Positions 61,794-62,369 of a stretch of DNA of 64,000 nucleotides are shown here, in pieces. The notes below the pieces were generated by a model. That model did no database searches, was not told where the DNA came from, and was given only the letters and a program-made list of their open reading frames with translations. A program made the translations under genes and the position numbers. Within the stretch, counting starts at the first letter, position 1. Each line of letters starts with the position of its first letter. The DNA is from Escherichia phage vB_EcoM-RPN187, in sequence record OL770074.2. One strand, 5' to 3'.

Positions 61794-62007
61794 AAGGAAT
61801 TTCCTCATCGGTGGCAAGGTCATATTCGACCAATTGGATAGGCTCATTAATACCATATCCGCGTACAGTGATATCGGTTGACGGATATTTTCCAGTAATA
61901 TCACCAATTCTAAATGATTCAATGAATGATTGCTCGCCTGAGCAACTAAACCAGGCGGCAAAACATTTTAAAACATCTTCAGACCCTTCTATAATCAATT
62001 TAGCCAT
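61783..62007 (-). CDS. hypothetical small protein
   Basis: 74 aa, TAATG overlap with grcA stop. Confidence 0.5.
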   Translation of the reverse strand: MAKLIIEGSEDVLKCFAAWFSCSGEQSFIESFRIGDITGKYPSTDITVRGYGINEPIQLVEYDLATDEEIPYVD

Positions 62008-62369
62008 TATAGGCTCTCAGTAAAGGTACGAGCGATAACGTCGCGCTGCTGTTCCGGAGTCAGAGAGTTAAAGCGAACTGCATAACCGGATACACGGATG
62101 GTCAGCTGCGGATATTTTTCCGGATGCTTAACTGCATCTTCCAGAGTTTCACGACGCAGAACGTTAACGTTCAGGTGTTGACCACCTTCAATTTTAACTT
62201 TAGGTTGATGTTCAATTTCAATTTCACGGGCATTCAAACCGTAGAAAATTTCTGGGTCTACAATAGCGTCTTCTTTAAAAGTCTTAGAGACAATAATCCG
62301 GGCTTGAGCACCGTCTTCAAAATAAATAGTGCCTTTATGTACACCTTCAAGAATTTGATATGCTTTCAT
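62007..62369 (-). CDS. grcA: autonomous glycyl radical cofactor (GrcA/YfiD-like)
   Basis: 120 aa; C-terminal [60 protein letters not shown] matches recalled E. coli GrcA glycyl-radical domain. Confidence 0.88.

Follow-up and report, generated by a model that had tools for sequence, protein, structure and literature searches.

The 64,000-nucleotide (nt) stretch of Escherichia phage vB_EcoM-RPN187 analysed here (OL770074.2; hereafter the window) contains, at 62007..62369 on the minus strand, a gene for a GrcA-like glycyl-radical protein. Its sequence and its place in the genome mark it as the Mosigvirus ortholog of T4 vs.6, the product of which we take to be the protein named Y06I. It is a mosaic, in which an old, phage-specific N-terminal half is followed by a recent copy of a host grcA allele (codons 61-117). 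Comparisons with related phages indicate no fewer than two events of homologous gene conversion in which host grcA overwrote the phage gene. Probably, the gene encodes a phage-made spare part for host pyruvate formate-lyase (PFL), with a core that was copied recently from host grcA and patched on at least two occasions. The parts of the gene on which the argument depends are as follows.

62007..62369, minus strand: GrcA-like coding sequence with an ATG start, 120 amino acids (aa) and a TAA stop; ortholog of T4 vs.6 (Y06I), predicted to encode an autonomous glycyl-radical cofactor of the phage
62190..62369, minus strand: N-terminal half (codons 1-60), AT-rich phage-lineage sequence conserved in T4-like phages, with a GC content of 0.344 overall and 0.217 at third codon positions (GC3)
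62019..62189, minus strand: host tract (codons 61-117), matching E. coli grcA (strain 1190) at 171/171 nt; encodes the structured glycyl-radical domain
62007..62018, minus strand: last three codons and stop (GAG AGC CTA TAA), phage-type synonymous variants forming the right-hand edge of the host tract
62085..62087, minus strand: codon of Gly95, the predicted glycyl-radical site, within the motif R92-V93-S94-G95-Y96-A97-V98 (RVSGYAV), which is the same in the host and aligns to GrcA Gly102 and PflB Gly734

DNA identity of the 3' half to E. coli grcA

The preliminary description of this DNA, made from the letters alone, held that the last 60 or so residues of the protein match E. coli GrcA while the N-terminal half differs, and it named a nucleotide alignment with host grcA as the way to recognize a recent transfer. 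An ungapped protein alignment anchored at the C-terminus bore out both parts of the first claim: residues 61-120 are identical to E. coli GrcA at 60/60 positions and residues 1-60 at 14/60, the phage protein being 7 aa shorter at its N-terminus. The nucleotide alignment of codons 61-117 gave 171/171 identity, which points to recent transfer. The longest exact run common to the phage gene and E. coli is 175 nt (62017..62191), and the 3' half departs from E. coli grcA only by two synonymous changes, both within the last three codons. Codons 1-60 match E. coli grcA at 75/180 nt.

The core (codons 61-117) is 100% identical in approximately 40% of 5,426 complete E. coli genomes, a share estimated from evenly spaced ranks of the match list, and the others differ from it at 1-2 nt. 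The phage core thus lies within the allelic range of E. coli itself (0-2 differences). When the rest of the 64-kb window was compared with the same 5,426 genomes by megablast there was no match, and the host tract is its sole matching part. The tract also stands out in base composition, with a GC content of 0.50 against 0.344 for the N-terminal half and 0.371 +/- 0.035 for the window, and it ties for the top 180-nt stretch of the window. The other stretch with a GC content of 0.50, at about 54331, falls in a 93-aa open reading frame (ORF; 54281..54562, minus strand) with a signal-peptide-like start and Gly/Ser/Ala-rich low complexity. This small ORF has no E. coli DNA match, and the GC-rich spot was ruled out as host DNA.

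Conservation of the protein does not by itself produce such identity. Exactly the same 60-aa tail occurs in twelve other bacterial species; one of these, an Escherichia sp., differs from the phage at 2/171 nt, and the other eleven at 13-28. For instance, the core differs from that of Citrobacter at 13 of the 171 nt, from K. pneumoniae at 21, and from Salmonella at 29, the tails of the last two having two amino-acid changes each relative to the phage. Similarly, the cores of RB16/RB43-like coliphages encode the same amino acids and yet are 28-32 nt apart from the phage core; protein constraint alone therefore gives no DNA identity. The codon usage of the phage predicts a match at approximately 24.5 of 57 codons and gives a probability of about 1e-26 for 57/57 matches. 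Non-preferred or arbitrary codons (TAT, TTT, GTA, AAG vs AAA, CGC vs CGT, CAA vs CAG) are all as in the host. Codon-usage convergence was ruled out as the source of the identity by this probability and by the 13-28 nt differences in species with the same protein.

Structure of the mosaic

The N-terminal half has a history of its own. It is only remotely homologous to the N-terminal half of GrcA (pairwise BLASTP: 35% over 40 aa, E 3e-6). By itself it matches the phage family phrog_1209 at positions 1-61 (E 1.5e-15), and it has no match of its own in NCBIfam. Relative to T4, it differs at 20/180 nt, with 0.35 synonymous (dS) and 0.07 nonsynonymous (dN) substitutions per site; relative to Klebsiella phage Mineola, dS is 1.55 and dN 0.165. 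With dN well below dS (dN/dS of about 0.1-0.2), the N-terminal half is under purifying selection.

Both ends of the host tract can be placed precisely. The left junction lies at codon 60/61, exactly where nucleotide homology to the host collapses. The right-hand edge, GAG...CTA TAATG, is common to the coliphage copies and to those of Klebsiella phages of the genus Jiaodavirus, whereas both hosts have GAA AGC CTG TAA. The last 10-25 nt of the gene are phage-type in the copies of both phage groups, and the last 9-nt coding stretch has one fixed and three polymorphic sites among phages. Both flanks of the tract are phage-lineage sequence and are themselves homologous to grcA. A host-identical tract between such flanks is the signature of homologous gene conversion, and not of a one-off illegitimate capture; its geometry is as expected if conversion extends only as far as homology allows. 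The donor was grcA and not pflB: pflB DNA is only about 80% identical to the phage core, and the amino acids of the core are of the GrcA type, unlike the PflB stretch MNREMLLDAMEN, so that both DNA and protein are closer to grcA.

The conversion probably drew on host chromosomal DNA and proceeded through the recombination machinery of the phage. T4 infection generates host DNA fragments, and short stretches of homology, on the order of 50 bp in marker-rescue experiments, are enough for T4 to recombine efficiently.

The host tract in other coliphages

The E. coli-type core is widespread. There are 642 phage records (Tequatrovirus and Mosigvirus, from Escherichia, Shigella, Yersinia, and Salmonella isolates) that are at least 95% identical to it, and 376 of these differ from the E. 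coli core at no more than 1 base. Between the window and T4, the core differs at 1/171 nt (dS 0, dN 0.008), and identity is 0.98-1.0 inside the tract and approximately 0.7 directly downstream. Among 13 phages sampled, 11 differences in the N-terminal half are fixed between Tequatrovirus and Mosigvirus, against none in the core (Fisher p 0.004). The polymorphic sites 204, 219, and 282 show the same bases in phages and in Escherichia.

The single core difference of T4 concerns its reference record, NC_000866 (vs.6 at 5058..5420), in which codon 73 is CAT (His) and not CGT (Arg) as in E. coli. Two further T4 records (MT984581.1 and OZ035787.1) have cores that are 100% identical to E. coli, and the codon 73 variant arose either by mutation in a laboratory stock or through an error in early sequencing.

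A parallel in Klebsiella phages

Jiaodavirus phages carry the same phage gene, with an N-terminal half identical to that of the window at 134/180 nt and 43/60 aa. Its core has Klebsiella-type residues (LLDAVEH) and K. pneumoniae-type DNA. For this comparison, K. pneumoniae grcA was represented by a single allele, taken from CP125156.1 in PLSDB and absent from the 80 genome loci compared. Over the 171 nt, the cores of the Jiaodavirus-like genome L107, of Mineola, and of RCIP0102 differ from this allele at 5, 9, and 10 sites, respectively, and from E. coli at 20-23; L107 and K. pneumoniae have a 140-nt exact run in common. The cores of the window and of T4, in turn, have 0-1 differences from E. 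coli and 21-22 from K. pneumoniae. The two host genes differ at 21/171 nt in the core and at 32/201 nt in the N part. Between the window and Mineola, dS of the core is 0.65, close to the 0.60 between E. coli and K. pneumoniae, and that of the phage N-terminal half is 1.55.

The coliphage and Klebsiella-phage patches have the same left junction. An E. coli-type core in coliphages and a K. pneumoniae-type core in Jiaodavirus, each attached to homologous N-terminal halves, imply at least two independent host-to-phage conversions.

Some of the records used here have peculiarities. CP125156.1 is labelled 'plasmid unnamed2' in the plasmid collection and is a 5.37-Mb K. pneumoniae chromosome; LR134122.1 belongs to the same collection. 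A contig of 'Vagococcus sp. WN89Y' carries an Enterobacteriaceae-type grcA and is probably contaminated. In L107 (IMGVR_UViG_2974754850_000001, 1501..1859), the copy closest to K. pneumoniae, the vs.6 match has 359 nt in place of 360, with the ORF shortened to 80 aa. This frameshift is either a sequencing error or the mark of a pseudogene.

Alternative origins of the tract

We lean, with modest confidence, towards the view that vs.6 evolves in concert with host grcA, repeated conversion resetting the core to the allele of the host genus while the N-terminal half evolves separately. Several observations weigh against the host-patch account in general. The Jiaodavirus cores closely resemble, but do not match exactly, the one K. 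pneumoniae allele compared. Up to 8 synonymous sites separate some Tequatrovirus copies from E. coli, and the Salmonella phages Lv5cm, pSe_SNUABM_01, and Manna, as well as Yersinia phage PYps11T, have an E. coli-type core (98.8-99.4% identity). Together, the drifted copies and the E. coli-type tracts in Salmonella and Yersinia isolates mean that conversion is too rare to track every isolation host, and the tract may report the habitual host of a lineage rather than the host of isolation. Additionally, Shigella phage JK45 (NC_054940.1, 81..443), which is classed as Tequatrovirus, has a Mosigvirus-type N-terminal half of vs.6, and its gene downstream of vs.6 is of Mosigvirus length. Phage-phage recombination between genera therefore occurs at this locus, and the missing fixed differences in the core could stem from one host-to-phage event combined with such recombination. 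Finally, the route itself, from host DNA fragments through the phage recombination machinery, is one that we infer. An account that dispenses with ongoing conversion would have a single recent host-to-phage event spread over Tequatrovirus and Mosigvirus by phage-phage recombination, with a separate event in Jiaodavirus. We consider this possible, if rather doubtful. It accords with the left junction common to both coliphage genera, with JK45, with the drift of copies by up to 8 synonymous changes, and with the isolates from Salmonella and Yersinia that still have the E. coli-type tract. Repeated conversion, however, also predicts a common junction, with homology collapsing upstream of codon 61. 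The variants at 204, 219, and 282 match Escherichia alleles, and no fewer than two independent host events are required on either account.

Other origins are very improbable. The domain is extremely conserved in bacteria and phages, and grcA is rich in preferred E. coli codons, so an ancient acquisition might be imagined to have stayed host-identical through purifying selection and convergent codon adaptation, with no recent exchange. Against this stand the eleven non-Escherichia species with identical residues and 13-28/171 nt differences, the RB16/RB43-like coliphages, which encode these amino acids at a distance of 28-32 nt, and the host-matched non-preferred and arbitrary codons (P of about 1e-26). 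Moreover, the coliphage genera are separated by a dS of 0.35 in the N-terminal half and of 0 in the core of the same gene. We give no more credence to transfer from phage to host or to an artefact of assembly or contamination. Two-way exchange has been reported for cyanophage psbA (PMC1484495). Here, however, the tract has a host-like GC content of 0.50 in a phage with 0.37, and the sequence is present in all 5,426 E. coli genomes. The grcA genes of E. coli and K. pneumoniae also diverge alike in the core (21/171) and the N part (32/201), which fits vertical descent in the hosts. As to an artefact, the mosaic is in frame, and some 640 independent phage records, T4 among them, contain it.

Family assignment of the product

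The preliminary description had called the product a GrcA-like glycyl-radical protein with a reported T4 homolog, and both statements hold. The Pfam model Gly_radical (PF01228) matches residues 59-101 (E 1.9e-18), and in a search of solved structures YfiD (6owr_A) matches the protein with E 1.4e-42. Residues 696-759 of PflB (1cm5_A) match over 64 ungapped residues (E 2.9e-26). The T4 homolog is vs.6/Y06I, which has the same gene order and 112/120 identical residues. The phrog_1209 profile matches the full length of the protein (positions 1-120 of 121, E 1.8e-62), and the protein is a member of this phage Vs.6 family and not a strict GrcA equivalog. In Escherichia phage AV112 (Mosigvirus), a gene annotated 'autonomous glycyl radical cofactor' is 99.7% identical to it in nt.

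Function of the product and its relation to NrdD

The role of the protein as a spare part is suggested by its T4 ortholog and by E. coli YfiD/GrcA. Oxygen cleaves PFL at Gly734, the glycyl-radical residue of PflB (PMC8683613). T4 Y06I and YfiD are activated by the PFL-activating enzyme (PFL-AE) and restore O2-cleaved PFL (Wagner et al. 2001, as described in PMC8683613). In YfiD, residues 61-127 form a structured domain that docks into PFL, and residues 1-60 are disordered and aid binding to cleaved PFL and installation of the radical (PMC8683613). By analogy, O2 would cleave host PflB at the glycyl radical Gly734 during infection, residues 61-120 of the phage protein would replace the lost PflB C-terminus, and host PflA would install a new radical on Gly95, so that PFL activity returns. 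The output of acetyl-CoA/ATP and formate would thereby be kept up during microaerobic infection. Through the conversions, the working domain of the phage protein stays an exact copy of the GrcA domain of the current host.

Two points count against this assignment. The score with the TIGR04365 'spare_glycyl' equivalog model is 159.1 bits, below its cut-off of 170, and the match spans residues 18-120 only; the low score is due to the N-terminal half, and formally the protein is no equivalog. In addition, the case for PflA activation and PflB rescue is extrapolated from T4 Y06I, a protein with 8 residue differences.

The window also encodes a class III ribonucleotide reductase and its activase, as the preliminary description had noted:

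44495..46312, minus strand: nrdD, class III ribonucleotide reductase (Pfam NRDD, E 2.4e-171, and Gly_radical)
44028..44498, minus strand: nrdG, NrdD activase (Fer4_12 and Radical_SAM)

The same description had suggested that the spare domain may rescue phage NrdD, and this part found no support. Such a domain would replace the C-terminus of O2-cleaved NrdD and be activated by NrdG. The presence of nrdD and nrdG in the same window, the match of both NrdD and the GrcA-like protein to Pfam Gly_radical, and speculation in reviews about spare parts for other glycyl-radical enzymes (PMC8683613) speak for it. Yet no significant similarity between the GrcA-like protein and phage NrdD was found (BLASTP E 2.6), the domain is host GrcA at 60/60 residues and closely matches PflB 696-759, and the tract tracks host grcA and no phage gene. 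The T4 ortholog, moreover, works with PFL and PFL-AE (PMC8683613). We regard service to NrdD as improbable, and a link to NrdD is more likely to be indirect, through the formate that PFL makes. We take T4-type NrdD to belong to the formate-type class III ribonucleotide reductases. Formate is described as the overall reductant of this type (Mulliez 1995, as cited in PMC11226230), and formate from PFL could thus also serve phage NrdD.

The reverse of a repair function is about equally improbable, namely that the protein is a decoy that competes with GrcA or PflB for PflA or for cleaved PFL and so shuts down or redirects host fermentation. Its N-terminal half is unlike that of the host, and YfiD's N-terminal half controls binding to cleaved PFL and activation (PMC8683613). 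T4 Y06I, however, restored PFL activity in vitro (PMC8683613), and the catalytic domain is identical to the functional domain of the host, radical glycine included. The mosaic also poses a puzzle: the phage-specific N-terminal half has been kept, although the matching region of YfiD controls damaged-PFL binding and activation.

Genomic setting

The gene order around the GrcA-like gene is that of AV112 and of the T4 string regB-vs.3-vs.4-vs.5-vs.6-vs.7-vs.8. In T4, vs.6 lies in the early gene string between regB and denV, and its place in the window is the same. The immediate neighbourhood includes the following.

62374..62377, minus strand: Shine-Dalgarno sequence GAGG, read from the sequence, 4 nt before the ATG and overlapping the TGA stop (62376..62378) of the upstream vs.7-like gene
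61783..62007, minus strand: downstream gene of 74 aa in the position of T4 vs.5 (phrog_1986, E 1.6e-37)

The stop of the GrcA-like gene overlaps the downstream start (TAATG; ATG at 62005..62007), which gives start-stop coupling of both genes. The downstream gene has no E. coli match, and host similarity ends there. Directly upstream of the GrcA-like gene no promoter-like site was found, the frequency of such sites in 61000..64000 being no higher than in shuffled sequence. With no promoter of its own in view, the gene appears to be transcribed as part of the vs.8-vs.7-vs.6-vs.5 string. At 63823..63840 (both strands), in the space separating two small genes, there is a perfect 7-bp hairpin (AGGCCT-ATAT/AAAT-AGGCCT) with a T-rich tail after it. 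It is terminator-like, and the transcription unit with vs.8-vs.7-vs.6 may begin here.

The gene at 61530..61796 (minus strand), two downstream of the GrcA-like gene, encodes an Acb2/Tad1 hairpin domain (PF24729, E 8.5e-18). Its position suggests that the product is a cyclic-nucleotide sponge of the T4 Vs.4 type, directed against the cyclic oligonucleotide-based antiphage signalling system (CBASS) or Thoeris. Scans of the 64-kb window for tRNAs and Rfam families gave no matches.

GrcA-like genes of other phages

Other phages with phrog_1209 proteins (RB16/RB43-like, KP15-like, CC31-like, and T5-like) resemble the window in having a variable N-terminal half followed by a conserved C-terminal domain. 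In contrast, their cores are 25-48 nt from every host gene tested, and with no present DNA identity to any tested host they were rejected as further cases of host matching. In the RB16/RB43-like and KP15-like genomes (L094-L100), the coliphage type (RB16/RB43-like) has the E. coli-type residues LEDAVKH and the Klebsiella type (KP15-like) the Klebsiella-type residues LLDAVEH, and the DNA is 25-34 sites from the tested hosts. This pattern reflects either old conversions that drifted at synonymous sites or selection for host-matched residues. The T5-like genomes (L125-L151, approximately 95-122 kb) encode a 122-aa homolog with 53-55% identity and a conserved C-terminal domain, at least 38 sites from the tested hosts; its GenBank labels vary and include 'pyruvate formate-lyase' and 'acetyltransferase-related'.

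Among metagenomic viral contigs, L101-L106 and L112 (approximately 32-154 kb) encode a GrcA-like protein of 130-133 aa with a more bacterial N-terminal half (…SIWLIE.NKARCLVAK…), and may represent a separate acquisition in phages of other hosts. The cores of L101-L104 are nearest to a Haemophilus/Pasteurellaceae-type grcA, with 24-31 nt differences. A host-matched patch in L101-L106 was ruled out, as these cores are still 24-33 nt from the nearest (Haemophilus-type) grcA. The apparent Yersinia match of IMG/VR locus L111 was likewise rejected; it is a full-length bacterial-type grcA (N-terminus MITGIQITKA...) with no phage mosaic.

Significance and comparison with known systems

The GrcA-like gene is no new discovery: it has been annotated before, and biochemical work exists on its T4 ortholog, so that no novel type of system is added by the window. 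The contribution of the present comparisons is evolutionary: the sole host-identical DNA in 64 kb is a 175-nt patch inside one gene. On vs.6 and grcA, the papers covered give protein-level homology and a Pfam match only (PMC8683613, PMC13450708, PMC1524935). Within the part of the literature that was covered, no published account of the host-allele patch in vs.6, of gene conversion, or of the Klebsiella-phage parallel was found.

The patch in vs.6 offers clean evidence that lytic T4-like phages recombine with host DNA despite destroying it, and that an auxiliary metabolic gene can stay host-matched through gene conversion. If vs.6 does evolve in concert with host grcA, it would be a natural, datable record of a hydroxymethylcytosine-containing lytic phage recombining with host DNA, and the phage would preserve perfect molecular mimicry with no need to await point mutations. 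The tract could also mark the recent host genus of a phage lineage. Together, vs.6 and grcA make an experimentally tractable system for host-to-phage recombination, in which the function is ordinary and the evolutionary signature unusually clean.

With E. coli GrcA (YfiD, 6OWR), the phage protein has in common a small stand-alone format (about 14 kDa) and a C-terminal Gly_radical domain that duplicates PflB from about 696 to 759. It differs in its setting, the host gene being at the ung-grcA-eamB locus and the phage gene in an early operon of a virulent phage. The C-terminal domain of PflB (696-759) is the segment that the phage protein would replace. T4 Vs.6, also of 120 aa, has the same combination of a phage-type N-terminal half and an E. 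coli-identical core. It differs from the window by 20 nt and 7 aa in the N-terminal half, and the gene downstream of it has 58 aa in T4 and 74 in the window.

The nearest precedent for the vs.6 patch is the intragenic recombination of psbA and psbD in cyanophages (Zeidner 2005; Sullivan 2006, PMC1484495). There, too, the metabolic gene of a T4-like phage is of host origin, with patchy GC content and segments exchanged with host copies. As in mosaics of the psbA type, vs.6 has a segment of host-like composition that matches a host allele and stands between phage-type flanks in one ORF, and more than one independent exchange has taken place. The vs.6 case differs in its enteric host and in the enzyme system concerned. 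Its patch is sharply bounded, with 175 nt identical to a living host allele, and in sister phage genera the patch at this junction comes from the host genus of each.

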